A stretch of DNA of 64,000 nt from Iphione sp. A-MEVVRFRX5 (lineage: Eukaryota), in assembly GCA_976226885.1 (NCBI GenBank), contig OZ320318.1:27404001-27468000 (forward strand). The letters are read 5' to 3'. A program made the position numbers and the translations under genes. Each line of letters opens with the position of its first letter. Position 1 is the stretch's first letter. This document shows positions 16,901 through 60,537 of the stretch, in pieces. The notes under the pieces are model-generated. The model was given only the letters and a program-made list of their open reading frames with translations, did no database searches and was not told where the DNA came from.

Positions 16901-17417
16901 TATGTTTCGATGGACTAAGGAAACAATCTTGGTCTAATCCATAGATTTTAAAATATAATGGCAGCACGGCTGTGAAAACACGTGCCTGAGGAAATTAAGC
17001 TGTACGCATGAAAACTGAAGCACTGGGTTGGATTAAGATAATGCGGCGCCGGTAGCATATGTAATAAAATCACATACTAAATATTTTCTTAATTTAAAGT
17101 TTTCCTCTAAAAGTAATATTTTAATATCTTCCTGTAACTATAATTATTTCTTGAAATTTATGTGAATTTATGTACATTTTGTGTAAATTCTGTTCAAACA
17201 TCTGGACAGTTTGCTTGCAAGCAATTGGTGGGCCCTTGAAAATGCTAGACTTCCAGCCTCTGTTATATTTGCTACTAGGTTAATTGGTCACTGCATGCCT
17301 GCCCGAGACTAATTCTCCACCAATATATATATGTATACATGTGTACATTTATATCTTTGTCTGTGAGGTATAAACTTTGCTTTAGGATTGCAGTCCTCAA
17401 ATCTGAATTATTGAAAA

Positions 17418-17753
17418 CAGTGGTAGAGCACTAGTCCAATGATTGAGAGGTCCCAGGTTCAATCCCAGGCCTGGGACTCTTGAATATGACCAGACAGATT
17501 TACTGTAGCCCCAACCCAGAGTGGTCCACAACTCCTAAAAAGGACCTGGGTGTATATGATTCTGTCCTCTATGTACAAAAAGACCCCAGTAACCTATTCA
17601 AAATATGAGTAGGGGACAACCCCGCATATTCTAGTTTCTCAGTTCTCAATAACAGATGGTAGTATGCTATCCCAGAAGCATATGGAAGAACCCTGTCATG
17701 ATGATAGGTGAATATATTCCTGGTTAAAGATACAATTAAGTGAGAATGAAAAC
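17418..17753 (+). mobile_element. tRNA-derived SINE, 5'-truncated copy
   Basis: Partial A box (cagtggtagagc) and B box (ggttcaatccc); aligns along its length with the reverse complement of 57917-58263. Confidence 0.85.
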
Positions 17754-18534
17754 AGACCCCAGCATATTTTGAACTATGGACTTATTCCCTATCTAAACAT
17801 ATATATACATATCTATGAGGTATGAAAAGTTTGGCAACAACCCATTTATGTTGCTCGTGTGTATCTTTGCCTGCATCCCCTTCGGCGCATCGGCGAATTG
17901 TATTTATTGCTGTTTCTGGTCAAAGATTTCTGTTTGACTGTTGAAGGTTTACTTCATTTATACGTCAATTCACCTCTACATAGGTGACTCCCAAACCTTC
18001 CTCTCGGAGGTTTATCACAAAAATCTTTAGACTTAGAGGCTAAAAACCTGTATTTTGTCAAGTAATGACACGCCATATAAATTGTCCCACCGACGCCTCA
18101 GTCGCTGCATGGTGGTGACTGCCTCTATCTGCGGCACATTCACCAGTCTTTCTTCGCTGGGTGGGATTGCATGGTGGGGCTTCTCAGTTTGCAGCGTCAA
18201 GGACGTGTTGGCAGATTTGTTGGCAATAATTAGCTTCGTTAACTCCGTGACAAGAAAAGTGTTTCTTTTCCTGGACTAGTTTGCTTGAATATTCTCGTCG
18301 GTTGCTCCTTACAGTCCTTATCTGCTGCGTGTTCGCTAAGAAAATCCTCATTATGAGAGATGTCATGCTAGGAATTCAGCTTTCTTTTCCTTACTCAGAA
18401 CCTTCCTATCTTCCTCCTAAATCTTATCAACACTTAACAAGGTGAGTGGGTGTCATTTAAAAATTTGGCAGGCATTAGGAGAGTTTAAAAAATACTTTCT
18501 TAGTATAATTGGGAGAAAAGGGGAGTTGATTTAC

Positions 18535-18919
18535 CTGGACGACAGGTGCCAACGGGGTGCTTATTGGTGGCGGCCAGCTCGGGGGCCACCTGCGGGTCGC
18601 AGTAGAGGCCGAGATCGCACCGGCCCAGGTAGCGGTAGGCACCGCCGCAGGCCTGGCCCTCTGTCTTTGCACACACGGGGCAGCAGTCGCAGATGCCGCG
18701 CGTCACGCCACCCTTACAGTGGAGGTGGCGCGCGCGCCGCGGCGTGCAGTGGATCTTCTCGCAGGAGGGGCATTGCAACTCCAGCGATTTGCCAACCGCC
18801 CCCGGCGCGTCGGAGGCCTCCGCCAGAGGCGCAACTGTCGACGAGCTGATGAATGAGGCGGGGAAGTGCGGGCTGATGAGGACCGCGAATGTGCAGATGA
18901 TGAAAGTTATTTGCAACAT
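18535..18919 (-). CDS. Secreted IGFBP N-terminal-domain protein (CRIM1/IGFBP-rP-like), first coding exon; downstream exons not resolved
   Basis: ATG at 18919 begins a hydrophobic signal-like segment (MLQITFIICTFAVLIS), followed by the IGFBP cysteine pattern CPSCEKIHC...CKGGVTRGICDCCPVCAKTEGQACGG...GRCDLGLYC...GTCRP. The exon ends at a phase-1 donor, ccag|gtaaat (intron starts 18534). Confidence 0.85.
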
Positions 18920-19850: not shown

Positions 19851-21509
19851 TGCTCGCGCGTTGAAATATGTTTTTATGCTTGAAACGCTACCGGTTCATC
19901 GAATCACTCGGCAGTCTGCCTTGTCCTACTCACATAGTTTTTCGGTTATCCATTGGTTGATGCACAGGCCTACTGCCCTTTACACATCGCACTCAATAGT
20001 CCTACACACAGCAGATATCCGAACACACGCCATCCATCCTCCTTTCAAGGCTCATAAGAATATCAATTTAGCATGTAGTCAACAAGTGTTCTATTTCCCA
20101 TATTGTCTTCACAGTCCTTGACGGCTGAAATCAGCACGTTGATCTGACAAGTGTTACTTGTGGTAAGTTTTGGTATGTACTCCAGCCAGCTTGCTCACTG
20201 CTTGCTCCCTGGGGAGTGTCTCTGACGTTAAGGTCAGATTGTTAGGAGATTGAAGGGAGTTATATAGTACTAAGTACTTTGTCGGTGTCTTCCAAGTTAC
20301 AGTTTACACACGTAATTTTCCGCTTCCACTGATGATTCCGTCGGGTCGTTTGCGTGAGGTGTTCATCCCCAAAACAGTGGATTTTTGCCGCGTATGAAAA
20401 TTAATGACTGCTCATCTGTGTATAATTATGGAGTACTCTGTGCTCCTCCCGCCACCAAACCAATTTCTTAAGAAAAAAAATCAACATTTAGGTCAGTTGA
20501 TCTCATTTCTTCGAGAGTCCATGCATAAAAATTCTACGTATACCTGTTATTAGAAACTTATTTTAATTACTTCAAACTGCTACTTCTAAAACTTCATAAA
20601 GGGATCTTCAGATGATTAGGGGCAAAACGGAGAGAATTATTAGAAGCAAATGTGGCACTTTGTAATTGATACTGCTGACCGATCTTAGAAACCAACATGA
20701 AACACCATGTCGGTTCGTTGGTGGGCTCTGGCACCGTTCAAAAACAGGCCGTCTGTTCTTCTGTATTAATGATGACACGTGCCATTGATTCCTGCTATTT
20801 ACATGCACTGTCAGACAGTTGAGTTCACTTACTACATAATTTACGAATTCAAGAGGAAGTAGAGCCAGAATACATCCTTGTGACTAATACAATGAAAATA
20901 GTATTTCTTGTCGTCCGATTTATTATACGCTTCCCCTCAATATATGCATACTAACTTGAAACCTGAAAAGGTACAATATATAAAAGGACGTTCCTGAAAT
21001 AGAAGAAGGAACTGTCAACACAATATTGATCGAGATGGCTCTGCCACTCCGCTTGACAAAGTATGGCTCCATATTGCTCAACAGTGAACATGCTTTTGAA
21101 TGTAAAGGGCTCATTAGCTTTACTAAGTGGATCATCAATGTTGCACTTGGTTGGAGATAGCCGATCAGTCGGCAGGAAGTTTTAAAGCTGACATTCAAGT
21201 AGCCGTACTGTCCGCAGTCCGTGTGCACGTAAGTCCGCATCCGCATGTCTCTGTGCAAGTAAAACTTTGTGACCGGCTGTTTTTCAGTGCATATTTATGT
21301 GATGTGCAAATCTGTACATGTGTGGGGGTGAGAATACCACTTGAAGTTTCCCATACCATGTGTAGGAAATCAACATGTATGAATGTGAAGCATTGGGAAA
21401 AGGACATTCACATTGTATGGTATCAGACCATACTGGTGTCCATCTCCACAGTTAATTCATTGTAGCTATTGTGGCCTGTCGCACGTAAATTGTTTTATGG
21501 TCTCTATAT

Positions 21510-21722
21510 TGTAGCAACGGGGGGGAAAGCGGAGGGCCATTACGCGGAGGAGCGGAGGGTGCGGAGGGAATACTGCGGAGGGTTATCATTTACTGCGGAG
21601 GGTTTACATTTACTATATAAATGCGTTGTTTGTTGGATTCGTGGTCAGTTGTGTCGAAGCTCTTCAGCAATAAACATCATCTTCCTCAACTTATGTCGTC
21701 TTCATTATGGCGGAGGCCAACA
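21510..21722 (+). repeat. 5' LTR (213 bp, TG...CA)
   Basis: Matches 29399-29620 with 3 substitutions and one 9-bp indel by eye. Contains TATATAAA (21614), Inr-like TCAGTT (21645), AATAAA (21669) and seven GCGGAG. Confidence 0.97.
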
Positions 21723-21723
21723 T

Positions 21724-21741
21724 TGGTGTCAGAAGTGGGAT
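21724..21741 (+). other. Primer-binding site, tRNA-Leu(CAA)-type
   Basis: tggtgtcagaagtgggat lies 1 nt after the LTR and is complementary to the 3' end ...AUCCCACUUCUGACACCA that I recall for metazoan tRNA-Leu(CAA). Confidence 0.85.
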
Positions 21742-21866
21742 GCGGAGGGGAACCTCGGGGCCGACGAATCGAGGCCCTGAGAGGGAGCAAACACCCCCTC
21801 CACAGAAAGCAGCCACGGCAGCCAGGACGCGGAGGGTTACCCGCAGGGCAACTGCGGAGGACGCCG

Positions 21867-22946
21867 ATGGGGGAGAAGCAGCACAACTGCCCACTGGGAG
21901 GCCGCGCCCAGTACGCACCCCTTCGAGGTTATGGGGAGGGGGCGAAGGTACAGAGGGGGAATCGGCTTCCCCCCCAAGGAGCGGTGAAGACGGCTCGGCA
22001 GGGGCCCACCCTGCGGAGGACCCCGGGGCGGCGGGGGCCCCTGGCACGGGGGGGGGGACAGCCAGCCGGAGGAGAGGAGGAACTCCCCAATGTGGAAGAC
22101 CCTCACCAGGAGTCAGAAGAGGAGGAGGAGGAGGAAGAGGAACCAGAGGAGGACTCGGATAAGCGGCCCCGGAAAGGTAGAGCCAAGCCCGAACCATACG
22201 ATGGCTCGACGGACCTTGACGATTACCTTCACCACTTCGGCCTCATCGCTGCCGCCAATCGATGGACAACCAAGGAGAAGGCCATTCATCTCGGAATCAG
22301 TCTCCGTGGTCCGGCAAGGACCACCATGCGGAATTCCGTCGTGCGGGTCCACGGCCCGCGGGCCTATCAGAAGTTGGTGGAGGCCCTCCGCAGTCGCTTC
22401 AGGTCGCCAGATCAGGTGGACCTATTTAAACAGCAGTTAAAGACCCACAAGCAAGGCGAGGCCGACTTATCCCAACTGGCTGACGAAGTGGAGAACCTGG
22501 TGAAATGAGCGTACCCTGGGGTACGAGGGCGGTGGGCGGATGAGCTCTGCCGGGATAGCTTCATCCAGGCGATTGTGGATGAGAAGGTGAGGAAGTGGGT
22601 GGTGCAGCGGAGGGTGGCCAACTTCCGCGCGGCGGTATCGGAGGCCCTCTTCGGGGAGGCCTATTTCCAAGGCCGGAGGGAAAGGGAACCAACAGGGAAA
22701 GCCTATGGTGGAAGGGCTGGCTGCCACTCGCTGTCGACGGTGGAGGGTGACGCCCGGGCCAAACGAGAGGACGACTTCCTGGACCGACTCGCTAAGAAGC
22801 TGGACCAGCTAGAGAGGCGATTGGAACAAAGTCCGACAACGGGCAGTCGAACCGGGTGCTTCCGCTGTGGGAAGGAGGGGCATTTCAAACGGGACTGCCC
22901 TTCCCGGCCGAAGCCGGCGGAAAACGACATGCCGCCCTCCCAGTAA
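21867..22946 (+). pseudogene. gag: gag (one premature TGA at 22506)
   Basis: KPEPYDGSTDLDDYLHHF capsid-like region and CFRCGKEGHFKRDC CCHC knuckle, in one frame across the TGA. The start codon (21867) is uncertain. Confidence 0.9.
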
Positions 22947-25900
22947 GGGGACAGGGAGAGGCGGCGGAGGAGTCCATCCCCAAGGAGCAGCTCAATGACT
23001 GGCTCTAGAAGAGGGCGGCCATGCCGCCGACAGAGGAAGGAGAGGCCTTCACCATCCTAAGGGGGCGGGCGGATCCTATGACGGGGGCACTAGGGCTACG
23101 AGGGAAGGTCGGAGGCCACGAAATGACCTGGCTGGTGGACACTGGGGCCTCTACCACCATCCTCGCGGTGCGAATGGCGGAGGCTCTCCGCCTGCCTGTC
23201 ACGGTCCTACCAGGGCGACGCATCATTGCCGCCAACGGGGCGCCCTTCCCCTGTGTGGGGAGAACTGAGGTAACGGTGGTCTTCAGGGAGACACCCTGGA
23301 CGATGGAAGCCCTGGTTGCAGAGGTGGAGCAAGCTGCCATCCTGGGGATGGACGCCCTCCACCGGAGGAGGGCTGTAGTGGACACAGCCGCCGGGACAAT
23401 CACCATCAGGAAGAACAGAGCGTGACCAGAACGAGTACAGCTAGCACAGGACACCTGTTTGAAAGCCCGGGCCGAGACCCTCATCTCGGTAACCATCGGT
23501 CAGGCCAAAGGGGGCGAGTGGGTTGTAGGACTGGTCCCCGCGCTGGAACATCGAGCGGGGGTGCGGGTGCCACATGCGGTGGCTAACGTGGACAATGGGC
23601 AGGCGCAACTCCTCTGTCTGAATGTGGCAGAGGGGGAGGTCTGGCTGTGGAGGGGGATGCAGGTGGCAGAGGCGGAGGAGGTCGAGGAGGAGCTGCGGAG
23701 GGAAGACGACCAAGGCAGCCCTAGGGCGCAAGGTGAGGTGCCCGCTCAGGAGGAGGGTGAGGCAGAGGAGTCCCTCTACACACGGCTAATCGAGGAGCTG
23801 ATGTCCGAGCTGCCCTCGGGAAGTACGGTGGAAGAGCGGGAGCAGTTGAGGAAGGTGCTTTGGACCCACCGCCGCGCCTTCCAGAGGGAGGGCACCGATC
23901 TAGGGTGCACCAATCTCGTGGAGCACGAAATCCATACAGAGGAGGCTGCCCCGGTACGACAGAGGTTTTGACGTCTTCCACCCCATAAAATGCGCATCGC
24001 GGAGGCTGAAATCCAGAAGATGGTACGACAAGGGGTGTTGGAACCCTCCAGCAGCCCGTGGGCCTCACCAGTGGTACTGGTCAAGAAGCGCAGTGGGGAG
24101 TGGAGATTCTGTATAGACTTCCGGCAGCTCAACGAGCGAACGCGCAAGGATGCTTACCCCCCACCCCGCGTGGATGATACTCTGGATGCGCTGGCCGGAG
24201 CCAGGTATTTCACGGTGATTGACCTGGCATCTGGGTATTGGCAAGTAGCGGTCCGGTCGGAGGACCGCCCGAAGACGGCCGTTTGCACCCCATCTGGGCT
24301 CTATCAATTCCGGGTCATGCCCTTCGGACTCTGTAACGCCCCCTCCACGTTCGAGCGATTGATGGATGTCATCCTTCGCGGTCTGGTCGGGGACTCCTGC
24401 CTTGTGTACTTGGACAATGTCATCATCATGGCCAAGACGGTGGGGGAGATGTGTGACCGCTTGGCGGAGGTGCTCCAACGGCTGGAGGCCGCCAGCCTCA
24501 AAGTGAAGCCTAGCAAGTGCCAGCTCCTCCGAGAACAGGTACAGTACCTTGGTCATATTGTCAGTGCGGGCGGGGTCCGTCCTGACCCGGAGAAGGTCCA
24601 AGCCGTAGCGGAGTGGCCAGTCCCGGGGACCTTGGCTGGTCTCCGCGCCTTCCTGGGCTTAGCCTCTTATTACCGCTCATTTATCCAAGACTTTGCGCGG
24701 CGAGCTGCCCCCCTCCATCGGCTGTTAGACAAGGAAGCGGAGTTCCAGTGGGGAAGTGAAGAGGAAGCCGCCTTTGAAGATCTTAAGCAGTGTCTAACTT
24801 CCGCACCCATCCTCGGATACCCCCAGCTGGAGGGGCGCCTGATTGTGGACACTGACACCTCTGGCAAAGGAGTGGGTGCCGTGCTCTCCCAGGAGCAGGA
24901 TGGCCGGGAGAGAGTGTTGATGTACGGTAGTCGAACCCTCACCAAGCCCGAGCGACGCTATTGCGTAACTCGGAAGGAGCTGCTAGCCGTGATCTTCGCC
25001 CTCCGGAAATTCAAGACCTATGTCAGCGGAAGGAAGGTCGTGGTCCGCACAGACCATGGAAGCCTCCGGTGGCTCATGAACTTCAAAGAGCCAGAGGGCC
25101 AAATGGCACGCTGGCTGGAGGAGTTGGCCTGTCGAGAGGTGGAAGTGATACATCGACCGGGGAGGGTGCACAACAACGCCGACGGGTTGTCGAGACGGCC
25201 ATGTCGACAGTGTAGCCGACGAGAGCCCGAGGAGACGGCCGCCGTTCTGACTGCGGAAGTGATGGCGGAGGCCCCTTCATCCTCCGCCATGGCTAGAGCC
25301 ACCCTAGCAGACCCGATCAGGGGCGAGTTACTGGGACGGCTGGAGCGGGGGGAAAGCCCCCCCGAGGTCAAGACCGAGACCAGCTGGGAAGAACGACGGC
25401 TGGTAGGGGAGTGGAAACAGCTACAGGTTCGCAGAGGACTGATCGTGCGGAGGTGGGAACATGAAGACGGGAGGGCCTGGTGGCAGGCCTGGGTTCCCCC
25501 CCCTCTACGGAAGGAGTGCTGGACGATGATTCACCAGGGAGCCATGGGAGGCCACCTTGGCCCTCAGAAGATGGCTGGCCTCCTCCGGGGGAAGTATTTC
25601 TGGCTGGGAATGACTTGGGACTCGATTGTGTGGGGGGCTGCCTGCCCTCATTGTCTGGAGGCTAAGGAGCCCAGCCGGAGGAGATGAACTCTGTTGCAGC
25701 ATCGCCAGAGCCCGGGACCTTGGGAGTTAGTAGCCGTGGACATCGCCGGACCATTCCCGCGGACACCCCGGGGCAACAAGTACATCCTGGTGATAGGGGA
25801 TCATTTTAGTAAATGGGCGGAGGCCTTCCCGCTCAAGGAACAAACCGCGGAGGCTACTGCGGAGGTGTTGATGAAGGAGGTGATATGTCGGTTTGGGCCT

Positions 25901-26679
25901 CCCAACAGCGACCAAGGCCGGAATTTTGAGGCGGAACTAGTGGCCCAACTGCTCAGTAGTTGCGGAATTCAGAAGACAAGGACCACCCCCTACCATCCCC
26001 AAGCCGATGGAGTAGTGGAGAGGTTCAATCGAACACTAGAGCATATGCTCACAACGACCGTCCAGGAAGATCAACGTGACTGGGATCTTCGGCTGCCATT
26101 TGTAACCGCTGCGTACCGGGCAACCCCCCACCGAACTACCCGATTCTCCCCAAACTTCCTCATTTTGAATCGGGAGACTACACTCCCCGTCGAAGCAGCT
26201 TATGGGGGCCCCCACCGGAGGAAGGAGCAGAGGTTGGTCCTTACGTCCAGGAGCAGATGGAACGGATGAAACAAGCCCATCGACTGGCAAACCAGCGTTT
26301 GGGGGAGGGAATCCAGCGCCAGACCGACTGGTACAACCATCGAGTGCAGCCTCGAAACTTCGCGGTAGGAGAGGAGGTGTACCTCTTCCTGCCGTTGAAA
26401 AAGCCGGGGCTATCTCCTAAATTACAGCGCTACTGGCAAGGCAAATGGCGGGTCAGCAAGCAGCTTTCGGCCGCCGTCTATCGCATCAAGAAGGGACGGC
26501 GAGAAAGAGTGGTACACGCCGACCTCCTGAAACCAGGAGCCCCGGGGGAAGATAGCGATGTCGTGGCCACCCTCCGCATAGAGAAGAGCGGAGGGAGGAC
26601 CGAGGAAAAGGCGGAGGTCCTCCGCAAACCCAGAGCCGTTGGAGTTCAAAACGAAGTGGCCAATCAGAAGGGCGGATGA
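22922..26679 (+). pseudogene. pol: pol (protease, RT, RNase H, integrase), -1 frame relative to gag, disrupted
   Basis: LVDTGAS protease; RT motifs SPWASPVVLV, MPFGLCNAP and YLDN (normally YLDD); RNase H DTDTSGKGVGAVL and NNADGLSR; integrase HHCC plus D..D..E core. Stops at 23006, 23423, 23969 and 25685, a frameshift near 26220-26260, and a short in-frame deletion at FGPPNSDQG. Confidence 0.96.
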
Positions 26680-26805
26680 GAAACGCGGAGGGGGCCGCGG
26701 TGCGGAGGGAAGCAGCCAGCCAATGAAAATTGAGTGGAGGATGCCGAGGCGCCAGATTCGAATATAAGTGACGCTCGCCCCAGGGGATGCTCATCATTCG
26801 ACACC
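26655..26805 (+). promoter_or_regulatory. Putative internal promoter for the accessory ORF
   Basis: CCAAT at 26660 and 26721, GC box gggcgg at 26670, GCGGAG at 26685 and 26702, TATAAG at 26763, and TCATTC Inr-like motif at 26794, followed by ATG at 26806. Confidence 0.55.
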
Positions 26806-29382
26806 ATGACGAAGAGCCAGAAAGACAAATATCCCTGCCCACTCTGCAAGAAAGTCTGCGACCACAAGGACAATCTTTAAAGACACGTGCAGACCCACAG
26901 CTCTGAGGCCTTCGTGTGGGGGTGCGGAGGGGAGAAGTGCGATGGGAAGATCTTTATGCGCAAGGACGATCTGAGGCGGCACCTGGATTCGAAGACCCAC
27001 CTGGCCGAGGGGGGTGCGCAAAAACTTCTACCTCGAATGAAGGAAGAATATTACGAATTCTACAAAAAGCCGGGGTCCACCAACTTGCGAGGGCGGCTCC
27101 GTCGCCCCGAAGAGACCGAGGAGGAAACGGGAAGCGGGACGTCCGACTCGGCCAGACCTCGACACAGTAGCCGCCACAAAGACAAGAAGAGGAGCAGAGA
27201 GCGGGGTGAGGGGTCGCACGAACACCGGAAGTCACGCCGCCGGTACAGTACCCCCACTCCACCCAAGAAGAAGAAAGCCAGACTTCCCTCCTCGTCGGAC
27301 AGCAAGCCCTCCGCACCATCGCTGCCCACTCCGTCACTGGGACCTCCACGCCGGCCACCAACTTCCCCGCAGGCTTCCACCTCGACAGGGCGATGGGAGA
27401 GACCGGTTATCCTGACTTCATCGGAGGAGAGTGCCCCCGCCTCCCGGTCTCCCTCGGCGGCTCGGGTCCGAGTGCACAAGACGGCCACCCGACGGAAGAA
27501 GGAGGACGGACCTGAGAAGAGGCTGACGAGGTCTACCCCTGTCAAGACAGTTCCAACGGAGGAGACGACGATGAAAAGCCTAACACCCACCAAGAAGACG
27601 AAGGGGGCGAATGCGGAGGGGAGCGCTACCACCAAGGCATTGGCGACCAGCTCCTCTACGAAGAAGAGGAAGCTTGGGGAGGCGGAGGCAGCAGTCGACC
27701 CCCCCACACACCCTCGCGTCCGCCAGCTCGTCCACGAGGAGGGGGAGGGTGAGCCACCCACCTCCGCCTCCTCGCCCCAGGGGATGAGGGCCAAATTACA
27801 AGAGGCCATCAACCGCCTTGACGCCGCCGAGGCCTTGGACCCTCCCGTGACACCGACCGCCCTGGAGAAGCTTCTGTCTGCTGCGGGAGACCTGGAGGCA
27901 GCCATGCGAGCCACGGATCTCCGGCCCAGTCGGTCGGAGTCCAGCCCGGTCACCCCAGGGAAGGGCCTGGGGCTGACCCCCGCCAAGCCAGCCCTCCGCA
28001 CGCCAGAGTTACTGAAGGGGGGTCAGCGAACGGAGGCCCCCCCTGGTCGGCCGATCGTCGCCTGGGCCGGGCTCACCGCGGACAAGAGCGGAGGACTCCC
28101 TGACAAGGCCATGTCCCCGCTCCTCAAGACCCCCACTCATTGAAGGTCGGTACCGTCGCCACTCCTCCGCACCCCCACGATGCCTCCGACCCCAGATGAA
28201 CTGAGTGTTGCAATTCAGACGTTGGTCTCCTCTGCGCGTGAGGGGCCGAAGGCGCCACAAGCCGAGGTCGACCAAGCCGCCCAAGTCCTGGAGGATCTGT
28301 TTGGGGCTGTGGACATGGACACCCTCCTGGCCGCAGCAAACCCTCCGTCAGTGGCCCCACCCGCCACGATCCAAGAGACGGCTGGGGGAAACGCCGAGAA
28401 CGCCGAGCCGCCGGAGGCTGCGGAGGGGGGCGAGTCCTCCTTTGGCTCCCTCGTTGGTCATCCTATTCCTTCCAGCGAGGACGGGCCAACCCCTGAGAAA
28501 CCGTCTCAAGAACTGTGCTATACGGAGGGTGCGGAAGCGGAGGCAAACCCAGTGGTCGAACCCCTTACTCCAATTGGCCACGAAGAAGTGGAGAAGTCGA
28601 GGCGAATTGCGCGCCAGGTCCTGGATTGGGAGGCAAGGCGGCAACGCTCCTTGAGTCAGTCTGGCGCGCCTCTTGTATCGGCGGGAGGCGACGGGGTCGG
28701 AAGCGGGGAGGCCGAGCCCTCCCCCTGCAAGGCTGGGGGGCAAGCTGCCACAGCCCCTGGCTCTACCGAAGGGAAGGTGCCCCTCCAATTGGTGGAGGGT
28801 GATGAAAACGGGAGGGTCGGTGGCGGGCCCACCTCCCACGTCGGAAGGAAGGAGTCCCTCCAATCGGCGGAGGGTGACGAACACGGTAGGGACGGTGGTG
28901 AGACCGCCTCCCACGACGCGCTGCCCCCTCGTCAAGGCGAAGGAGGGGGGGGAACCTGCGGAGGCCGAGCCCTCCATCCACCAGGCTGGGCCGGGGAACG
29001 ATCGCCCAAACCCCTGGCCCCACCGGAAGGAAGGTGCCCCTCCAATCGGCGGAGGGTGATGAAAACGGGAGGGTCGGTGACGGGCCCACCTTCCACGTCG
29101 GAAGGAAGGACAATTCTGATATCGGTGGGCAAGAGCCGAGTGGCGCGGAGGCGAGGTCGAATGTGCGTAGTAATTGAGAGCCGCGTCCGCTTACAAAGAA
29201 GGGAGGAGGACGCCTCCCTGGAGGGAGAGACTGGGTTTCTCTTCTCTGACTGGTATAGAGGGGTGCGGCCAGTGCCCCTGGGCCTCCAGATTGATGAATT
29301 TGACATTCGTTTAGAGTTCCTTACTGCCGCTGATGTTGAATTTGAGGTTCATGAATGTTATAGTATCCTGGGTCAGGATTAA
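26806..29382 (+). pseudogene. Accessory ORF3: tandem C2H2 zinc-finger protein with basic NLS-like motifs, long S/T/P-rich disordered region, acidic segment and unknown C-terminal domain (two premature stops)
   Basis: MTKSQKDKYPCPLCKKVCDHKDNL*RHVQTH-SSEA-FVWGCGGEKCDGKIFMRKDDLRRHLDSKTH. The track ORFs 26887-28143 and 28180-29382 are in the same frame, separated by TGA at 28141; the other stop is TAA at 26878. Confidence 0.85.
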
Positions 29383-29398
29383 ACTAAGGAGGGGATAG
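29381..29398 (+). other. Polypurine tract
   Basis: aaactaaggaggggatag abuts the 3' LTR. Confidence 0.8.
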
Positions 29399-29620
29399 TA
29401 TAGCGACGGGGGGGAAAGCGGAGGGCCATTACGCGGAGGAGCGGAGGGTGCGGAGGGTGCGGAGGGAATACTGCGGAGGGTTATCATTTACTGCGGAGGG
29501 TTTACATTTACTATATAAATGCGTTGTTTGTTGGATTCGTGGTCAGTTGTGTCGAAGCTCTTCAGCAATAAACATCATCTTCCTCAACTTATGTCGTCTT
29601 CATTATGGCAGAGGCCAACA
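29399..29620 (+). repeat. 3' LTR (222 bp; first dinucleotide mutated TG>TA)
   Basis: Copy of 21510-21722 with one extra GCGGAGGGT unit. Confidence 0.97.
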
Positions 29621-31478
29621 ATATGCTTGGGGCAATTCACATGGACTGGATGGAAATTTTGTACATGTGGTTTCCACACATATACAGACAGTAATTCTGT
29701 GTAGGATAGTGTGTGATTATGTATCGTTTTCTCAGAATAAGGGCAACTGTGAAAGATACGTACATAATATTGATGCAAATATCTCAGAGAAAGGGCAGAT
29801 TCTGCATGTTACTTATGTGCATTTTGGATGAAAATATCTCCCAAAATAAAACATGAAATCACCTTGGCCATACATGGAACCTTTCCTTTATCTTCCGTTG
29901 TCTTTTAACACCACTTGCGTGCACTTCTTTGGAAATTCACGCTTCAAACGGCTCGGTCATCAAAGAGAGAACACTCGTCTAACATTCCTGATTACAGAAT
30001 CTGTATTACGGGCAGTGTGGACAACATTTACTACACTCAAGGGTTCACTTGGAGACTGACCTTTAGATTACTTACTAATTGTACAACTGGACTGCTACAA
30101 ACGTGATTGAAAGAGATAGATGTGAATACCAGACATTAGTATGGCACAGTCATTCCAACTGCCAACCAGGGCTTCGAGCCTCTCGGCCACTGATACTCAG
30201 TTGTGGAAAATGTTTTCAAAGGCACATATGAAGCCAACCATAATTTTAAGTTTGCACTTTACCCAAGTAACCTGGACAGTACCGTCTACGACATCACTAG
30301 ATAAACAGCTAGGGTACCAGGCCGCTTTTAATCCATCCCCCCCCCCCGTTGTCACCGCAGGGTTATCATGGACTCCCTACAACAAGTCATCCTATGCTAA
30401 ATAAGACCAACAACAACTGGTGGATTGCAGCTCTGGCGGAACACTCTGTAGACCTGTATGTTGTGAAAGTGACACTGGCTTCCTCTCTCCTTGCACAGCA
30501 TATGCTACAGTTGAAATTTTGTCAAAGACTAAACTGCGGAGGCAACCAAATCACAGGAGAGACCAATTTGGGCCAGAATGGACCAAATTCGACTACTTTT
30601 CCTATATGTAAAAGACTTGCAGTGGAGAGCGGCTCATAGGCGAGACCATTTTCAGGGAGAGACCAAGATATTTATTACCGAACAAAGACTTTTAGCTCAC
30701 AGAGGTGACCATACACACCCTGGGGAGGGTATCCATGGCTGAGAGAGGTGAATTCGGACCACATGGTGACAATGATTTCACATCGCCACGACTGCCATGG
30801 GCCCGTGGGGTGACAACCACAGAGCAGGTGGTATAAACCCGTCAAGTCACAGCATAAACCGCTGATTCGTGGTATAAACCAGTCGATTTTGAGTGTTGTA
30901 GCACGACAATGTGTGACTGCAGCACAGAAATCAGATATGAAAAGTGCACATCTGAGGCATCACACTTGACACCTTGGGTCACCTTGGGTCACACCTTGAC
31001 CCACCAACCCCTTGAACTTGGACACCTGAGACCCTCTTCTCGCACCTGTCTACCTGCTATTATCATTTGGGATCATTGGGGCATCATTTGGGATCCTGAA
31101 ATATAAGAGCTTCACAGGGGAGACCATCTCCCAGGAGAGACCAAAATCAGTCATGCAGTCCCAAGCTTGGTCTCCTACGTGAGGCTCTACTGAATATAAA
31201 GTGACTTTGCTTCACTCATTCTATCACAAAACCAATGGATAATACTGCTAAGGTATTTGATATGTTTACAACGTACAAAGAACATGGTCAAAACAGGGAG
31301 TGACTTCAATTTTCCATCCATGTGTGAAAAAAGATGCATAATATGCCCCATGGCAAGTATGGAGGAGAAAAATGTTCTTACACCATATTCATGTAAGAAC
31401 ATAACTCAAAGTTGGTAACATCTTAAAGCACATTTGTTTAAATCTAGCTTCTAACACTTGAGCCGCGATAAGTCCTTA

Positions 31479-31794: not shown

Positions 31795-33699
31795 TTAGTA
31801 GCAACTCTTCTTTCCATACTTTGGTCAGCCCATTAATTTCCAGGTGAGATAAGAAAGACATAAAATTATTGATTTCGTGAAAAGCAGTATGGATATCACG
31901 TGATCACTCACTTCAAAAGTTTATCATAGAAAATATACTGAAGTAAACACAAAACTCACTTTCAACTAGATTTTATTAGGAATTAGCTAGTAATAACGAC
32001 AGCATGACAAGGAATGTATAATAAACATACGTTAAATCCAATATTGCAGCATCCTATTTTAAGTATCCAAAAGATAATAGAATCCTGTGACCGTAAATAG
32101 TTTATTTTCATTTCTTGCACCCACGAGAATTTATAACCAATGAAACTAAAACCTTTGTATCAATCATAATAAAACAAAATCCAAAATGGCGGCCAATGCA
32201 AGCATGTTCGCTACATATCTAAACAAGAAGCCGCTTTTCTTGGTAAATTGATATGAAACAATCCATATGTCTTATTATAAATAGTCAGAACGGACTTTAA
32301 CCCTTAGACGGCGGCGGGGTAGTATCGCGTGTATCCACCATGCAGTGGTACTTGAGTAAAGACGTAATCCAATAGAGGGCGAGACATATACAGCATCATC
32401 GCCCATGATGCGTCCTCGTGGTGAATCAGGCTGGACTTTTTGTCTGTTTTAGGGATATTATGAAACTGACAATTACTAATCTAAATGGAATTATTATTCT
32501 AAGGGATATTACAAATTTATGGATGACTTTTCATAGGAATTACATTACTTTTTGTGCCATATCGGACTATCAATCACTGGATAGTTAAGCTGACACTGGA
32601 TTACGTAAGATGCTCATACTGGATATACAGAAAGTACACATGGAATTTAATTAATATATGACCAACAAATAACAGGAAAAATGTGAGTAATATTCAATTT
32701 CAATTTATTTTGTGTTTGTGGGCATCCAGATAGCAGTCAGTTTTACATTTTACTCCTGGACGATGTCTGCATAGTTCACATGAGTGTGGTAGGCGGTGAA
32801 GCAGCCAGGGAGGCAGAGGTGAGCCCCACAGTCGACACACCCATATTTTTTTCGACTCAATGATCTAGTTGGATCATATTTCCTCCTGGAATAACACACC
32901 TTACAATATGACCTCCTCCCCAAGTCTGAGGGCATACAACGATTTGTCAGTCTGCTTGCTTCAAGTGGTTGATTTTTTAGAGCCTTAGGGACAAATTTCC
33001 TCCTAATGAGATGGATATGAGAGATTCAGCACAACAACGGATGAAAAACTTGAGTGACTTCCTTTTTGGCTGCTGAGAGTTAAACATGATACATGCATTC
33101 ACCTTTATCACCTCAAACATATTCCACACAAATTTCAATGTCCACTTGTTGGTTCTCCTGCTGAATAAATAGTATTGCCTAAGCTGGTCACTCAGGTTGA
33201 CTCCTCCCATATATTTAGAATAATCGACAATACTCTGCGGGCAGGGAATTTCAGTCTTCTCAAAGCGGCTGGTCTGCTTATTTTTCAATAGTCTGGATAC
33301 ACTAGTCATAATGGATTTGAGGATGGTTGATATTACACGTACAGGTTTCCTATCTTGCCAAACTGTAAGAATTATATCCCTGCATACCCTAAGTACATAC
33401 AATCCTCTATCTCTTCCAAGCATTTTTGTTTTTTTGCAAGCTAAATCAGCAGGTAGACCTCTGGCATTACGGCATATCGTTCCACCGCAGTAGACACATT
33501 TCAATAGAGTATTCCTGAATAGTTTCAATGAGGTATAATGATTATCAAAAAATAAATACAGGAGAATCTCACTTTGCGACCACCACTTGGGTCGGCCCAA
33601 AATGGTCGTAATTCTGAATATGGTCGCAAAGTGATTGTGGAGGGGTTTGGGCTTGAAATCATATCCCTTTCTCCCTCTCTCTTTATTAACATATGAAAC

Positions 33700-33823
33700 G
33701 TCCAAAAAGTGCTGAATTTGATGACTTTAGGTCCAAAAAGTGCTGAATTTGATGACTAAAAGTCCAAAAAGTGCTGAATTTGATGACTTTAAGTCCAAAA
33801 AGTGCTGAATTTGATGACTATAA
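33700..33823. repeat. 31-bp tandem repeat x4 inside the MITE
   Basis: gtccaaaaagtgctgaatttgatgact at 33700, 33731, 33762 and 33793. Confidence 0.95.
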
Positions 33824-33834
33824 GTGACTCAAAG

Positions 33835-34310
33835 AGGTGAGAGACCATCAAAGACGTCGCAGTTGACGCCTGCGACCACTGCCGGCCAACCCCTCCAAGG
33901 TGTGAGGAACATCAGAGACGTCCCCGTTGACGCCCGCGACCACCCCGGCCAACCCCTCCAGGGTGAGAGACCATCAAAGTCGTCGAGGTTGACGCCCGCG
34001 ACCACTCTCGGGCTACCCCTCCAGGGCGAGAGACCATCAGAGACGTCCCCGTTGACGCCCGCGACATCCCGCGACCACTCTCGGGCTACCCCTCCAAGGT
34101 GCGAGGAACATCAGAGACGTCGAAATTGACGCCTCGACATCCCGCGACCACTCTCGGCCTCACCCCTCCAGGGTGAGAGACCATCAAAGTCGTCGAAGTT
34201 GACGCCCGCGACCACTCTCGGGCTACCCCTCCAGGGTGAGAGACCATCAGAGACGTCCCCGTTGACGCCCGCGACATCCCGCGACCACTCTCGGGCTACC
34301 CCTCCAAGGT
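33835..34310. repeat. ~63-73-bp GC-rich tandem repeat, about 7 copies, inside the MITE
   Basis: Unit gggtgagagaccatcaaagtcgtcgaggttgacgcccgcgaccactctcgggctacccctcca, with variants. Confidence 0.93.
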
Positions 34311-37300
34311 GATGGTCGCAAAGTGATATTAAAATGTACTAAAAACGACCCTAGGAGGTGTGGTTGGAGGCTGAATATGGTCGGAAAGCAATATGGTCAC
34401 AAAGTAAGACACTGTCATATAGAGAATGTACTAAAAATGATTCCGTTCTGACCCAAAATGGTCGCAATAGTCGATTTGGTCGCAAAGTGAGGAGGTCGCA
34501 AAGTGAGTTTCTCCTGTAATACCCTTGACCATCCATGTCTGCCGCAGCCAGAAGCTTGTCGACCACAAAGTCCCTCAATGACACATTGGCCCGATCTTCT
34601 TGTCCGTGGTATGGGAACAGTTGTAGGATGTACCATGTGGATAGAAAATATAATTTCCTGAGTATTGATAAGGTAAGAACATATGGTAGACACAGATATG
34701 AATATATGCCAGTTTGATAGCACCATTTCCAAAAATAAATATATTCTAATGAAAAATAATTTGTATTACCTGTTGCTGATTCGGCAAGGGCTCAGCACTT
34801 GATACTCCATTTACATGGCTTTTGGGGCATGTACTGCTTCAGGAAGACTTTTCCCTTGAAGGCGAACATGGATTCGTCAATGGATATATTTCTCAATGGT
34901 CTGTACACATATGGTGCAATCTTGTTGAATATTTCCACAACATAGTTGACCTTCCAAGTTGGAGAGTAGTCTTTGTCGCCACAGTCGGGTGTGTGCGTGC
35001 AGTCATAGAAGCATAGGTAGCTGGAAAGTAAAATACCAGAGAAATGGTTAGATACATTAATTTTTTGGTGAGAATTCATTATGAAAAAATAAATACAATT
35101 TTATCATAGATTATTTACAGATATACGAAATTGCTATGACTGTGACAACACAAGAAAATTATACATACCATAAAATCTGGCAAAACCAGTCTCGAACCAT
35201 CACCTTGGGGAAGAAAGGTGTAGCCAATGACTCTGCAGTCAACCAATAGTCCTTTAGTTCAGGTTTATCCAGCAATCCCATCAGGAATACTAGTCCAAAG
35301 AAGCCTTGTATTTTGTCCAGGGTTACCTTCCACCACTTCATTTTGTGCTCTTTGGGGTTGGCCTCCCAACTCTTCTCAGCATAAGCATTGGTATAGTCCA
35401 TGATGGTTGTGAGGAAAGACAGTGGTAGAAATAAACATAAATAATCAAAGAGTTTGCTAGACTTGTCTAACCCTGTATTATCTTGGACTCCTGGTGCTTT
35501 TCCAGTAAAATTGTGAATTTCTGGGCTTATTCCTGTATTCAAAGTCTTCCATCCATCGTCTCCACATAAAGCACTCAGTGGTTCATTGTCACTGTCTGAG
35601 CCACTCTCTTCACCATCTGAGTTGTCCGTTGAGGCTTCACCCTCTCCAATCCCTTGATCGAGCAGTTTCAACATAGATATAGGCAAAATTGTCCTCTCTC
35701 AAGTCTGAACCTGAGCTAAATTCGTCATCCATGCTTCAAAAATGGTATTTCTCCAAATAATGAATGAATGAATGCAGTGTAAATACACACAGGTGCGTGT
35801 GGTAGTCCAAGATGCTAAAATATGTCATATAGAAGATTTTACTTGGTTACTCCTAAAAACACACTCCTATGATTATAATTTAATGTCTGTTCTGCACGTC
35901 TGACCCCTTCCCATAAAATTAAAAATAATAGTTCACCTTGAAAATTGACACTGAATCATATAGGTTAAATATAATGCTTAAATGCAATACTCCCCGTCCC
36001 AACGGGAATGCACGGACGCACTACTCGCCGGGACCACGGGAATGCGTCAATGCACTAGCCAGCATCAGAGGGTTAAGAGTCAGCTTCCACATTTGCATAT
36101 TCGTGTCATATTTGCATTGTTACCAGTACATTGTTAACGTTGTGATTGTACCCACATCTGCATTGCTTTAATACATTTGCATTTGCGTTATTTGTTTTTA
36201 TGACAGTGCTCATAAATTTTATGCAAATATATGAGGAGGATACAGCAGAGCAAGCTAGAATATATGTGAAAATACGTTAGATCACGCAAAAAATCTATCT
36301 AGTTTGCATATCATTCGAATAAATACCATACAGTTGGACAAATGTCAGATATTTTCAGGGAAAAACAAATATTTGGCATAACTTCAGGAAATTCACAGGA
36401 AAAAAACTACACAGTTAGTACAAATTTCAGACATTTATGGGAAAAACTGCACATTTAGCACAAATTTTTAACATTTGTAGGACAGACTGCACATTGGCAC
36501 AATTTCAGGATGGTCCACATCATGCATACATGTGGAAAACAGCAGGAAATGGTAGGAAATGCAACACATTCATGCAAGCAAAAGGACACCTTCTGCATGG
36601 GCATGTCTTATTCCTTTCACAACAGGTATTTTTGCACAATGCAAATGCAGGCAAAATGCGGAAAAGCAAATATGGAAACTGGACTAAAGTCTATATGCTC
36701 TATAGTTTGGTAGTTAAATCACTTAGAGCCTTAACCTGCAGGCTCAGCTGTTATGATGAAACTACAACACAAAATGTAACAATCTACACTTTATGCCTTC
36801 CATGGATTTTATCCTACCTTAATTCAATCAGTATTTTTCAGATTATAACCACATCTCTCATTCTCATACTCTTCATGCTTTTTAGTATAAATGCAACTAC
36901 TAATACCATTTCAATGAGACATGTTATCAGAAAGGTGAAGTGTAAGTGAAGTTATATCGTAAAACAACTGAGTCATGTAAAGTTTGCTCTTAGTGACTGT
37001 GTAAGGTGACAGGTAATGACAACTATCAGCGAAATACCATAGAACCATACCATACCATAGAAAAACATCTGTACTCTATTTATTGGATATTCAAATCATC
37101 CAACTGATTGCAAATAATATTTATGAACTTTTTAAATATCATTGAAGTCATTGAAATTATATTCATGAAGTGATCTTATTAAAGCTTCGATATAATTCAA
37201 GATTAATAAAATTGGCCAATGAAGACAATGTTCCCCCTCCTCATGACGTATAGAGTTGCAGTGGAAAGACACTTTAGGGACACATCCCTAATAGTGGACC

Positions 37301-45877: not shown

Positions 45878-48800
45878 ATGTTTCTGGTGCTCTACACTCG
45901 TAGCACCAAGATAGTAAACTCACTATTCACCAGATGCTTGAAAAAGACTGTGTGTCAGCCTGCACTAACGCCGCCGGAATCTCGTCGAGCGGAATGCTTA
46001 CATCCTGTTGTACAGAAAGATCGGTTTCGCCTTCTTCAGTCTACCGCTATTAACACTCAGTTTCCCCCTTTCCAAAAACGGAAGCGAACGTATCCTTCCA
46101 ATTGCAATCAAGCGGTGTCTTATACGCCGTTTGCCTCATTGAGTCTCAACTCGCCCACCGGCTGCGCCCACCCAGAATATTCTGATGGATTCGTGAGGTC
46201 CAAGCATAAGAAAGACAGGAAGAATCTTAAGTCATCAGAGAAGGAGGGGATTGGAATCTTTGACCAGCAACAACTGCATATACGGCCGCAGTCACTTGAA
46301 CGACGGCAATCAGTGAAACTCGGATATATCTACACAACTCAGGGAACAGGTGCAATGGAGTCCAGGGGTGTGAAGTAAGTACAGGAGAACCCCACCATGC
46401 GACCAGTCGCCTAGGGCGACCAGTCGGCCAGTGCGACCAGTTTTACTAAGAACGAACCAAATTTCAGTACATTTGCTATATGTTACACTTCGCCCATGGC
46501 GACCACTTGGCTTGGGCGACCATTCGCCCAATAAGACCACTATTTCCAGTACCAAAGTAATGATTTCAAGGTGTCTATGGCGACCACCAGCCCACATACC
46601 CAAATAAACACTATGAAAATGACCCTTGAGGAAGTAATTTAGACTTCTTTTCCCCATAATATTCAGTTAATTTGGACTTTTTCCCCATAATATTCAGTTA
46701 ATTTGGACATTTTCCCCATAATATTCAGTAAATTTGGACTTTTCCCCCATAATATTCAGTTAATTTGGACTTTTCCCCCATAATATTCAGTTAATTTAGA
46801 CTTCTTTTCCCCATAATATTACCCATAGAGAAGGACACATAGAGAGGGACATAGAGAGAGAGAGGGAGACAGAGAGAGGGACAGAGAGAGAGGGATACAG
46901 AGAGAGGGATACAGAGAGAGAGGGAGAGAGGGAGACAGAGAGAGGGACCCAATGCCTTAGGCGACCATCTGCCTAATGCGACCACTTCAGCTCAGTCCCT
47001 TAGGTGGTCGCATTAGGCGGGTTCTCCTGTACAAAGTTGTTTTTACCTTCCGTCATTATTTCTTAGTTAAAATTCTGCATGTATTTGACTTTTTTTGTAC
47101 GTATTGGTTGTTATAAAGTGCAAAAGTCAATATAGTATTGTCTTAATCCGTATTTACAGACGTCGCAGTGAAATGCATCACAGTCCGCGGAAGAAGCAGC
47201 CTCGTCATGTGGGTAGTGAGCATGCTGCCTACTCATCAGGAGTTAGCCTGGAGATCGATCCAGTGAGTAATCCCTGTACAGGGTATGCCTCTGTTAACGA
47301 AGGACGTGTTCTAGGAATTCACTTCATTCTAGAAAACTACGTTTATTAGAGTCAAGTTTGTCCAAAATGTCTTTACGGGTTCTTTTTTTTTTAGGTTTAA
47401 TTAAAAAAAAAAAAATTATGTTTTCTCGTACATTGATATATCTGTACATATCTTTTTCTTTGTAGCTACCTTCTAGCTCTCTATATGGCACTTTGCGTCT
47501 CTTGTTTCCCAAGTTTTGGGAGCTACTTTGAAGAAAAATGTTTATGGAAAGTAGTCTTGGGCTACAGTGGAAATAGCCAGTTTCAATTCATTAAAAAGGA
47601 ACTTTGTTATCAGAGGCTTCGTTAAGAAAGGTATACCCGACTTGTCAGAGTGAATGAATTCTTTAGAGCAGATGTGTTTTCTGTAAACCAAATGAAACTG
47701 ATATGCTTCTCTTTTGTCGTTTTTTGCCGTAAAAAATAAGGACGGCTTTATAAGCTTAAAAACCGTTTCCTTTTGTATGCTGTTTTTTGGGGGGAAGGGG
47801 GAGGGATTTCCGGGAAGGTCTTGCACTTGTGCAAATGACTTGATATAGAAATTTGCAGGCATCTCTACATAGGTGTCATCTGTAGTACGTGTCACAGTCT
47901 CTCTGATAGTTTGCCTGTTGTAAGATGAAATGAAAACCACCAGAGCACACTGGATGCTACCCTGTAGTGTCAGTTGGTATGAGAAATATATTGCAGTATT
48001 GTGTGGATTTTAGGGGGAAAAGATGGGTTGTTTGGTAGCTCCATTTCCTTACCTCTTTTTAGGCGAGCACCCTAACAAGGGTCTGTAGGGTTGCCTTATA
48101 AGTTATAGGTAGAAGAGAGCTGTTAACGTTATCTGATGTTTCAAAAGCTCCACAGACTACGTAATAAGTACATGTCGGTGCGGTGCTTATGTGGTCATCT
48201 TTTTTAAAAGGATCACAGTTATGTGCCCGTCAGTGCTACCTTGAGGCAGCTCTCTTGATTGACCCACATTGCTTATGACCATCCCCAGCCGGTTTTCAGC
48301 TGGTTTCTTATATTTTCATTTATCTTTAGATTGATTTGGTTCAGATTGCCTACATTTTCTCTGTTTACCTTGACTTGTTTCCTACCTTTGATTTTCATTT
48401 TCCCCAGTGGACGCAATATATGTGGCAGTTTTATGAAAGTCGCCACCAAACAAAAGAAGTCTACATGAAGAAAATGAGGCTTCGTGAGGCCCTCTACACG
48501 TTAATGAAGGGAGTCTTTCCACGTAAGTTCATTGATGTGTGGTTGATTGACTGTTTTAATGATTGTTCTCTTGGTGACTTTCTCCTTTTGATTAAGATAT
48601 GAAGCCCGAAAACCTGAAATTTCAGACATGCGTAAGTTCTTGAGATGTCATATGTCAGAATCATTTCATGCGGTTCGCAGGTCTGTTGAAAGATGGGAGG
48701 ATACACATACATACATATATCATGTCTCTTGTCATGCCTTATGATCACCAGATTTTCTGTTCTTTATCAGATTGCGGAGTGTATGTTGTTGGTTCTTCAA

Positions 48801-59800: not shown

Positions 59801-60537
59801 GGAAAGCACCAGGGCTACCCATCGACCTCCCAGTTGGATGGCAGGCTGCTAGATGGGAGGAAGTTCATAAGGGGAGAGCACCAGGGTTACCTGTCCACCT
59901 CCTGGCTGGATGGTGGACAGCTAGGTGTGAGGGTGTTTATGAGGGGAGAGCACCAGAGCCACCCAATGACCTCCAAGCTGGATGACAGGCTGCTAGCAGG
60001 GAGGGTCCACCTGTCCACCTCCCAGTTGGATGGTGGATTGTTAGATGGGAGGATGTTCATGAGGGGAGAGCACCAGGGCTACCTGTCCACCTCCAGGCTG
60101 GATGGTGGACAGCTAGGTGGGAGGGTGTCTATTAGGGGAGAGCACCAGGGCTATCCATCCACATCCCTGCTGGATGTTGAGCTGCTAAGTGGGAGGAGTT
60201 CATGAGGGGAGAGGGTTTCAGCTACCCACCCACCTCACAGCTGGACTGCAGGCAGCTAAAAGGCGGGAATCCATCAAGGAAGTGTTCTAGCCACCTGTTC
60301 ACGTCTTGACAAGATGCTGAGCTACTAGGAAAGGAGGGTACTTACAAGGGGAGAGTGCTAGGGCCTCCCATCTACCTCTCTGCTAGACGCCGGGCCGTTA
60401 GGAGGAAAGGGCTGGGCGAAGGGATATCAAATATCTCTGAATTTGTCCATGCAATTTGGTTACAAATTGAATAAAATTCATGAGATACTACTGTATTTCT
60501 GTTCCAGTATCCCTCTTTTTCCCTAAATCGATATTTT

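Follow-up and report, generated by a model that had tools for sequence, protein, structure and literature searches.

Does a long terminal repeat (LTR) retrotransposon carry, inside its own pol gene, a second promoter for a regulator that acts back on the element? The question is raised by a GC-rich Ty3/Gypsy LTR retrotransposon of 8.1 kb (21510-29620) embedded in AT-rich host DNA of Iphione sp.; the window is the whole 64-kb stretch analyzed, and all positions are window positions. An annotation made earlier from the letters alone (the sequence-only reading) had placed an internal promoter between the end of pol and a zinc finger open reading frame (ORF), termed ORF3, and had likened it to the internal promoter of foamy viruses. 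The analysis presented here indicates that a working internal promoter very probably exists in the family, as judged from conserved sequence motifs, but that it lies within the pol frame. With less assurance, we favor the fuller reading that this stretch is an RNA polymerase II promoter written into pol and forms a feedback circuit with the zinc fingers encoded downstream. Assignment of the element to Ty3/Gypsy is based on Pfam matches in the order protease, reverse transcriptase (RT), RNase H, and integrase, together with paired LTRs, a primer-binding site, a polypurine tract, and an ATAT target-site copy on either side. The LTRs (213 versus 222 nucleotides [nt]) are identical at 209 of 212 aligned letters and differ in addition by one 9-nt indel.

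Other copies of the element were used to determine where pol ends. A DNA search of the same genome with the element returned 152 candidates, of which 40 were scored (91 to 97% identity); a search for the fingers returned 2,891 candidates, and 22 of the 150 finger loci scored sit in an open frame of 2,395 amino acids. Four such copies, with LTR pairs 99.5 to 100% alike, consist of gag (424 amino acids) and a single Pol frame that includes the fingers. In young copies pol is thus one frame of 2,395 amino acids, and the window copy is broken by several stops and a frameshift. The stop at 26677, taken by the sequence-only reading as the end of pol, is present in 1 of 29 other copies; the stops at 25685, 26878, and 28141 are present in 1, 0, and 0 of them, respectively. 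The window copy additionally carries a second stop in the linker (the stretch between integrase and fingers) and a frameshift in the integrase. From the integrase to the ATG at 26806, which is in the Pol (integrase) frame, the reading frame is open in 22 of 30 copies. Among the 69 loci scored, 63 have a distance divisible by 3 between the end of the integrase and finger 1, and 49 of these 63 are open; the other two frames are open in 0 and 1 loci. ORF3 is the C-terminal ~1,050 amino acids of Pol. An intergenic position of the promoter stretch is ruled out by the rarity of the 26677 stop and by the open frame; annotating one decayed copy had split the gene and misplaced the promoter. Because the linker frame is kept, the element probably makes both Pol with its tail and a free finger protein. 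The window copy, with a stop inside finger 1, cannot supply this protein, and its promoters could respond to protein from intact copies. In an old, internally deleted copy (L062, G000:C13:38505300-38515200), almost nothing separates the end of gag from the finger ATG; this copy still has both LTRs and is possibly a non-autonomous form that retains the regulator.

Analysis of the stretch ahead of the fingers confirmed every motif of the sequence-only reading at its exact position (Table 1), including TCATTC at 26794 as an initiator (Inr)-like sequence. The LTR motifs (TATA at 21614 and TCAGTT at 21645) are likewise exact, and the TATA-to-Inr distance is 31 nt at the LTR and the internal site alike. 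The pattern TATAA[AG] occurs three times in the 8.1-kb element, in the two LTRs and at 26763. It is confined to the LTRs and the internal site in young copies of lineage A (that of the window) and lineage B as well; family D has one extra occurrence at the finger start, without CCAAT or Inr. The context of the distal CCAAT box is presumably of the NF-Y type. The upstream GCGGAGG sites at 26571, 26588, 26611, and 26619 are kept in 33, 31, 34, and 34 of 40 copies, respectively, and the local cluster comprises, family-wide, seven GCGGAGG sites in about 170 nt. The GC box is present, as had been noted, but it was dropped as a conserved promoter part after only 2 of 7 diverged rows were found to keep it. 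When four natural Pol frames were shuffled synonymously 2,000 times each, the full module (RCCAAT, TATAA, and TCA at +27 to +33) appeared somewhere in the frame 0, 3, 0, and 6 times. A chance module occurs once in the AT-rich host flank of the window, at 17369.

Conservation across family copies, the check proposed with the sequence-only reading, was run and came out in its favor: CCAAT, TATA, Inr, and ATG are kept in copies and in five lineages. Among the 40 copies, positions 26655-26805 contain 3 shared synonymous variants versus 10.6 expected (Poisson p 0.007) and 7 shared variants that change amino acids. The sliding windows of this test before 25450 are invalid because the guide frame was shifted there, an effect that lowers the expected count and makes the test conservative. 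The linker protein itself has diverged, with 15 to 18% identity between A and B or D (integrase core, 71%; fingers, 50 to 62%), and blastn of the A linker against those of B and D found only 10- to 13-nt matches. Despite these diverged linkers, the young families B and D have CCAAT, TATAAA, TCA at +30/31, and an in-frame first ATG. Per-copy retention in family B (n = 14) is 13 for TATAA, 13 for Inr, 13 for ATG, and 11 for CCAAT; in family D each is kept in 5 of 5 copies. For A with its old relatives (n = 11), the values are CCAAT 11, TATAA 8 (plus 3 variants), Inr 7, and ATG 8. Near-identical duplicates and L059, L062, and L065 (upstream deletions or foreign DNA) were left out of these tallies. 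Motif columns are more conserved than other linker columns in A (0.96 versus 0.70), B (0.98 versus 0.78), and D (1.0 versus 0.90), and the third positions of lineage A give 0.95 versus 0.68. Codon periodicity is present in the fingers and absent in the linker.

Further finger-bearing lineages were reached by an integrase-domain search, in which 150 of 5,681 candidates were scored. A midpoint-rooted tree of the Pol core (24 rows) gave (A,(B,D)), (G,H), and ((L134,L136),(E,F)), all three groups being fully supported; L126 is absent from the tree and from module scoring. All 11 rows of A, B, D, G, and H have the module once in the 7-kb Pol frame, immediately ahead of the ATG of the fingers; for this count the TATA pattern was relaxed after lineage G had been seen. 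TATA-to-Inr spacing across these lineages is +30 to +33, and the predicted leader, 10 to 333 nt long, is free of ATG in 10 of the 11 rows. An in-frame ATG stands 6 to 38 amino acids ahead of the first finger in all lineages. Five-lineage conservation, synonymous constraint, and the lack of a shared splice acceptor point to the predicted internal promoter, now placed inside the pol frame. The stretch serves a double purpose, encoding a weakly constrained linker and carrying CCAAT, GCGGAGG, TATA, and Inr. A search with one pattern for retroposed poly(A) copies that would mark the start site gave 0 matches, which is a weak test. A look-up of RNA data for 26300-27400 gave no entry, which counts neither for nor against transcription. 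At G000:C13:70253834-70255697, three family B finger matches are spaced 842 nt apart, which suggests a tandem duplication including the internal promoter.

The next question is what the finger protein reads. Finger 1 is regular and finger 2 has the form C-x4-C-x13-H-x5-H; profile searches with the finger region matched solved C2H2 proteins. In lineages A, B, and D, finger 1 has R/D/N/R at the contact positions -1/+2/+3/+6, and finger 2 has R/(D,E)/D/R there. D at +2 favors a following G or T. Designed fingers with such residues read GAG and GCG, the C-terminal finger lying on the 5' triplet (available text of PMC5260015 and PMC7317221). Taken together, the contact residues and the designed-finger tables predict the target GCG-GAG, which is the LTR motif. 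Across the element as a whole, no 7-mer is more enriched than GCGGAGG (44 on the plus strand versus 8 on the minus strand). Each Pol frame has 42 to 47 copies, versus 9 to 12 in shuffles (maximum, 22), and the host flank has 3 in 55,870 nt. Density is about 32/kb in the LTRs, 13 to 16/kb at the internal site, and ~4/kb elsewhere, including coding sequence. The two GCGGAG sites emphasized by the sequence-only reading are present; given the enrichment across the element, they alone prove little. In sister lineages finger 2 keeps R/D/R at -1/+3/+6 and finger 1 varies, and the top motif shifts by lineage: GCGGAGA in H (A at +2 of finger 1), GCGGAGT in F, and GCGGATT in L136. Lineage E, in which finger 1 is degenerate (N and R lost), has no enriched 7-mer; its LTRs (L122-L125, L140) were observed to be packed with TGCA/GTGC repeats, not GCG-type sites. 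A pattern for families with another residue at +6 of finger 2 found 1 degraded copy only. The earlier suggestion that the LTR and the internal promoter share sites bound by the finger product agrees with the recognition code and in part with the covariation, and we predict with good confidence that the fingers bind the GCGGAGG motif.

A circuit can be proposed from these parts. In the window and in the printed A, B, and D rows, the LTR U3 has little beyond GCGGAGG arrays, TATA, and Inr and lacks CCAAT, which the internal promoter adds. Host factors at CCAAT and TATA would provide a basal level of a subgenomic mRNA, ~2.9 kb long and terminating in the 3' LTR. Translation from the first ATG of this mRNA would give a ~1,050-amino-acid two-finger protein without recourse to rare frameshifted Pol. 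The fingers would bind GCG-GAG-G, and the protein would then raise the output of its own promoter and switch on the LTR. We infer the start site, the binding, and the sign of the feedback. The feedback switch imagined in the sequence-only reading is plausible in its positive form from the layout of the LTR versus the internal promoter, and repression or anti-silencing is also compatible with it; on balance, net activation seems somewhat the better guess.

Several observations weigh against the promoter and circuit reading. Synonymous variants are nearly as scarce in a tail stretch at ~27620-27840, so that synonymous depletion alone is modest evidence. Conservation of the GCGGAGG columns reaches significance in lineage A only (B, p 0.08; D, p 0.07), and these column p values lean optimistic because the columns lack independence and a single row served to define the motifs. 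The module is absent in 12 of 12 scored rows of E, F, L134, and L136. Among 200-nt intervals, the one before the fingers is the richest in sites in A (7 sites) and in B (5, versus 4 in the runner-up); it is tied in D and is not among the leading intervals in D2. Finger 2 and the inter-finger linker, which is not TGEKP-like, are atypical; the fold model is weak (predicted local distance difference test score [pLDDT] of 62.6, with helices at both fingers), and Foldseek with this model gave no match at E<=0.001. F has Q at -1, which predicts GAA, yet shows GAG; lineage G has no clear GCG-GA 7-mer in the frame; and with about 7 lineages, related to one another, the finger-motif covariation is suggestive only. 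Finally, the kept linker frame means that the Pol-finger fusion is also selected and could carry function.

The alternative that survives best accepts both the promoter and motif binding and takes the protein for an anti-silencing or chromatin factor (VANC-like) or a copy-number repressor (like Ty1 p22 in effect). It would account for a motif that is enriched about four-fold along the whole 7-kb frame, beyond the promoters, that includes CpG in copies showing CpG decay, and that is rare in the host flank. VANC also depends on a short motif dense in its own element (available text of PMC6719617). Against this, the densest arrays stand just upstream of TATA boxes, as with activator sites. Both readings may hold; taken as the explanation, this alternative is unlikely but of some weight.

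Considerably less probable is a role of the fingers in Pol or integrase only, in holding LTR ends or choosing targets, with the motifs as by-products of the linker. The in-frame fusion in every young lineage and the kept linker frame fit such a role, as does the finding that integrase tails often carry targeting domains (available text of bioRxiv 2024.04.02.587720). However, the motifs outlast the linker protein, third positions are constrained, the codon phase of the Inr differs in D, and the in-frame ATG ahead of the first finger is found in all lineages. The 5' flanks of 10 young insertions, with 2 sites in about 9.6 kb, gave no sign of targeting, and finger-guided insertion beside GCGGAGG was rejected on these counts.

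It is very unlikely that the finger mRNA is spliced from the LTR transcript, even though a weak CCCCAG (26778-26783) is kept in 38 of 40 close copies and textbook acceptors exist in sister lineages. CCCCAG was rejected as an acceptor because no branch point lies at a usable distance from it and because L056, L061, B, and D have lost it but kept TATA. The window element has no strict acceptor, nor is there one close to the ATG in lineages A and B, and the A leader has no donor-like site; lineage D has one strict acceptor, 543 nt upstream, within the integrase. Acceptors with branch point, pyrimidine tract, and AG precede the finger ATG by 2 to 371 nt in E (7 of 7), in F (3 of 4, the fourth lacking the branch point), and in L136, but not in L134. 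An intron-like unit, with a conserved donor and a branch point/acceptor inside the integrase-finger linker and within the open Pol frame, was observed in L122-L125, L128, L129, and L140 (E), in L126, L130, L135, and L139 (F), and in L136. As these donors lie inside the linker, the 5' exon need not derive from the LTR even there. With a predicted promoter in some lineages and mostly acceptors in their sisters, selection in this clade seems to have favored expressing the finger protein separately, by two routes. The remaining alternative, a real promoter whose GCGGAGG is read by a host factor (presumably EGR/WT1/Sp-KLF-like, such GC-rich motifs being common host sites) while the fingers do something else without feedback, has a similarly slight chance, since the triplets GCG-GAG fit the order of both helices and, among lineages of one genome, finger 1 and the motif's 3' half shift together.

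Internal promoters are already known from foamy viruses, Tor3b/4b, and Ty1; the present arrangement differs from these and is not a foamy system. In foamy viruses a basal internal promoter (IP) is combined with a regulator-dependent LTR, and Tas/Bel-1 activates both (available text of PMC7390438). The promoter-plus-finger system resembles this in its predicted second promoter, inside a coding gene and ahead of a regulator, with possible positive feedback, and CCAAT confined to the internal promoter would fit a basal IP and a dependent LTR. Unlike foamy viruses, the element has no env, its promoter lies in pol rather than env, and its regulator is an in-frame C2H2 extension of Pol rather than a separate Tas gene. 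No Pfam match to the Tas/Bel-1 family was found in the element up to E 1; C2H2 matches were found instead. Both promoters here carry the same 7-mer, which is also spread over the coding region, whereas Tas targets are said to share little sequence in the available text of PMC7390438. The likeness to the foamy IP seen by the sequence-only reading lies in the predicted mode of action. With the promoter inside the pol frame and the fingers as an in-frame extension, the layout is nearer to Ty1i or Tor3b than to a free-standing tas gene.

Tor3b and Tor4b of Oikopleura use the internal promoter Penv, located in pol for Tor3b, and Tor3a uses splicing (available text of PMC4402516). Both are, like the element here, of Ty3/gypsy type; the internal start of Tor3b in pol corresponds to the one predicted here, and related groups splice, as the sister lineages seem to do. 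In contrast, Tor3b/4b drive a separate env gene for a membrane protein, and the available part of that account describes no self-encoded DNA-binding factor. Ty1i starts inside an ORF, and p22 is a C-terminal part of the polyprotein that serves as a separate regulator (available text of PMC5834202); the transcript predicted here would likewise start within an ORF and, from the in-frame first ATG present there, encode its C-terminal part. Ty1i differs in lying in GAG, being TATA-less, encoding a capsid-binding inhibitor, and belonging to Ty1/copia, versus pol and a conserved TATA here. VANC of Arabidopsis VANDAL elements is similar in that the element encodes a factor linked to a short motif, one that abounds in the element and is scarce in the host, and the GCGGAGG counts given above show the same distribution. 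Unlike the present factor, VANC is not a C2H2 protein and belongs to a DNA transposon, for which demethylation of the family was shown (available text of PMC6719617). Accessory C-terminal domains of Ty3/Gypsy integrases include the chromodomain and others. They likewise place an extra module behind the integrase via a disordered linker (available text of bioRxiv 2024.04.02.587720); here the module is a putative sequence-reading finger pair plus ~1,000 amino acids with its own predicted promoter and start codon.

Table 1. Positions of element features in the window
Feature	Position	Strand	Remarks
5' LTR, TG...CA	21510..21722	+	213 nt; preceded by ATAT target-site copy 21506-21509
U3 array of six GCGGAGG	21529..21601	+	seventh site at 21710; upstream of TATA box, without CCAAT
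LTR core promoter: TATATAAA at 21614, Inr-like TCAGTT at 21645	21614..21650	+	putative function, from motifs
gag frame, broken in window copy	21621..22945	+	Retrotrans_gag, E 0.003, below cut-off
Primer-binding site	21724..21741	+	from sequence; same position in copies
pol frame: protease, RT, RNase H, integrase, linker, two C2H2 fingers, long disordered tail	22800..29382	+	start approximate
Upstream GCGGAGG cluster	26571..26625	.	26571 (-), 26588 (+), 26611 (+), 26619 (-); missed by the sequence-only reading
Distal CCAAT box	26660..26664	+	29/29 and 38/39 copies; kept in diverged subfamilies
GC box-like GGGCGG, probably not a part	26670..26675	+	32/39 close copies but 2/7 diverged subfamily rows
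Stop codon nearly private to window copy	26677..26679	+	1/29 other copies; not the pol end in the family
Two GCGGAGG sites, 26685 and 26702	26685..26708	+	kept in 33/39 and 35/39 copies
Proximal CCAAT box	26720..26724	+	43 nt ahead of TATA; 29/29 copies
Further family GCGGAGG position, lost in window copy	26734..26740	+	32/40 copies
Internal TATA box TATAAG	26763..26768	+	38/39 copies; sole TATAA[AG] between LTRs
Inr-like TCATCATTC	26791..26799	+	TCATTC 36/39, TCATCA 39/39; predicted start near 26796 (or 26793)
First ATG past Inr	26806..26808	+	Pol frame; A at -3; 39/39 copies
Two C2H2-type fingers	26836..27000	+	second with atypical spacing; stop 26878 in window copy only (0/29 others)
Tail of Pol	27001..29382	+	basic, then Pro/Ser/acidic low-complexity; last ~100 amino acids more hydrophobic; without membrane segment
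Polypurine tract	29386..29398	+	sequence
3' LTR	29399..29620	+	222 nt; seven GCGGAGG; AATAAA at 29567; target-site copy ATAT 29621-29624

Some further features of the element and the window were recorded. The primer-binding site, which we take to be of the tRNA-Leu type, differs in lineage A (21724-21741) from that of all other lineages printed (L066-L079, L122-L141); we assume that both sequences correspond to leucine tRNAs. An env-like tail of Pol was ruled out, as Pfam gave no env-like family in the tail pieces and the maximum hydropathy is 0.89, without a membrane segment. The last ~90 to 100 amino acids of Pol (window 29080-29382; L051, L067, L071) resemble a small, folded, acidic domain that can be aligned across A, B, and D at 15 to 41% identity and belongs to no Pfam family; an Atlas search with the last 105 amino acids gave nothing usable. 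Outside the element, an ORF on the minus strand (18500-18919) has a signal-peptide-like start and a cysteine-rich motif that we take to resemble the IGFBP N-terminal domain, and the element may sit in or near the corresponding host gene. An ORF fragment on the minus strand (32977-33423) presumably resembles a piggyBac-type transposase. A ~285-nt dispersed repeat is present in two inverted copies (84 to 90%) at 17418-17700 and 57968-58251, with the chance module at 17369 just before the first. Tandem repeat arrays are located at 59596-60405 (unit of 72 nt), 46648-46955 (31 and 14 nt), and 33696-34311 (31 and 63 to 73 nt).

In open-access PubMed Central (PMC) and bioRxiv literature (Repbase, Dfam, and subscription journals being outside this scope), no Gypsy element with C2H2 fingers in Pol or with a self-binding regulator was found. 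Word-based protein searches for relatives elsewhere gave no match; the 150 proteins listed by a HMMER search were all multi-finger proteins (5 or more stretches); a metagenome scan gave 3 loci, none with pol or fingers; and the finger region of L122 matched only generic C2H2 clusters in the Atlas. With no relative found in other organisms by these searches, the clade is documented in this genome only.

To our knowledge, self-encoded sequence-specific regulators are a hallmark of complex retroviruses and of few DNA transposons, and simple LTR elements are generally regarded as relying on host factors. We give an even chance to the view that a clade of envelope-less animal Gypsy elements has independently evolved a circuit of the complex-retrovirus type with private, self-amplifying on-switches. 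According to this view, a two-finger factor would end Pol in each lineage and be expressed separately, by a promoter in five lineages and by an intron-containing route elsewhere; LTR and coding sequence would have been rewritten with the factor's own site, finger 1 and site drifting together. Several young lineages of one genome, with differing finger-site pairs, reveal in their sequence the regulator together with its predicted site and promoter, which makes direct tests cheap. The lineages form a natural series for studying the joint change of a factor and its site, the origin of dual-coding DNA, and the activation of an element or its escape from silencing.

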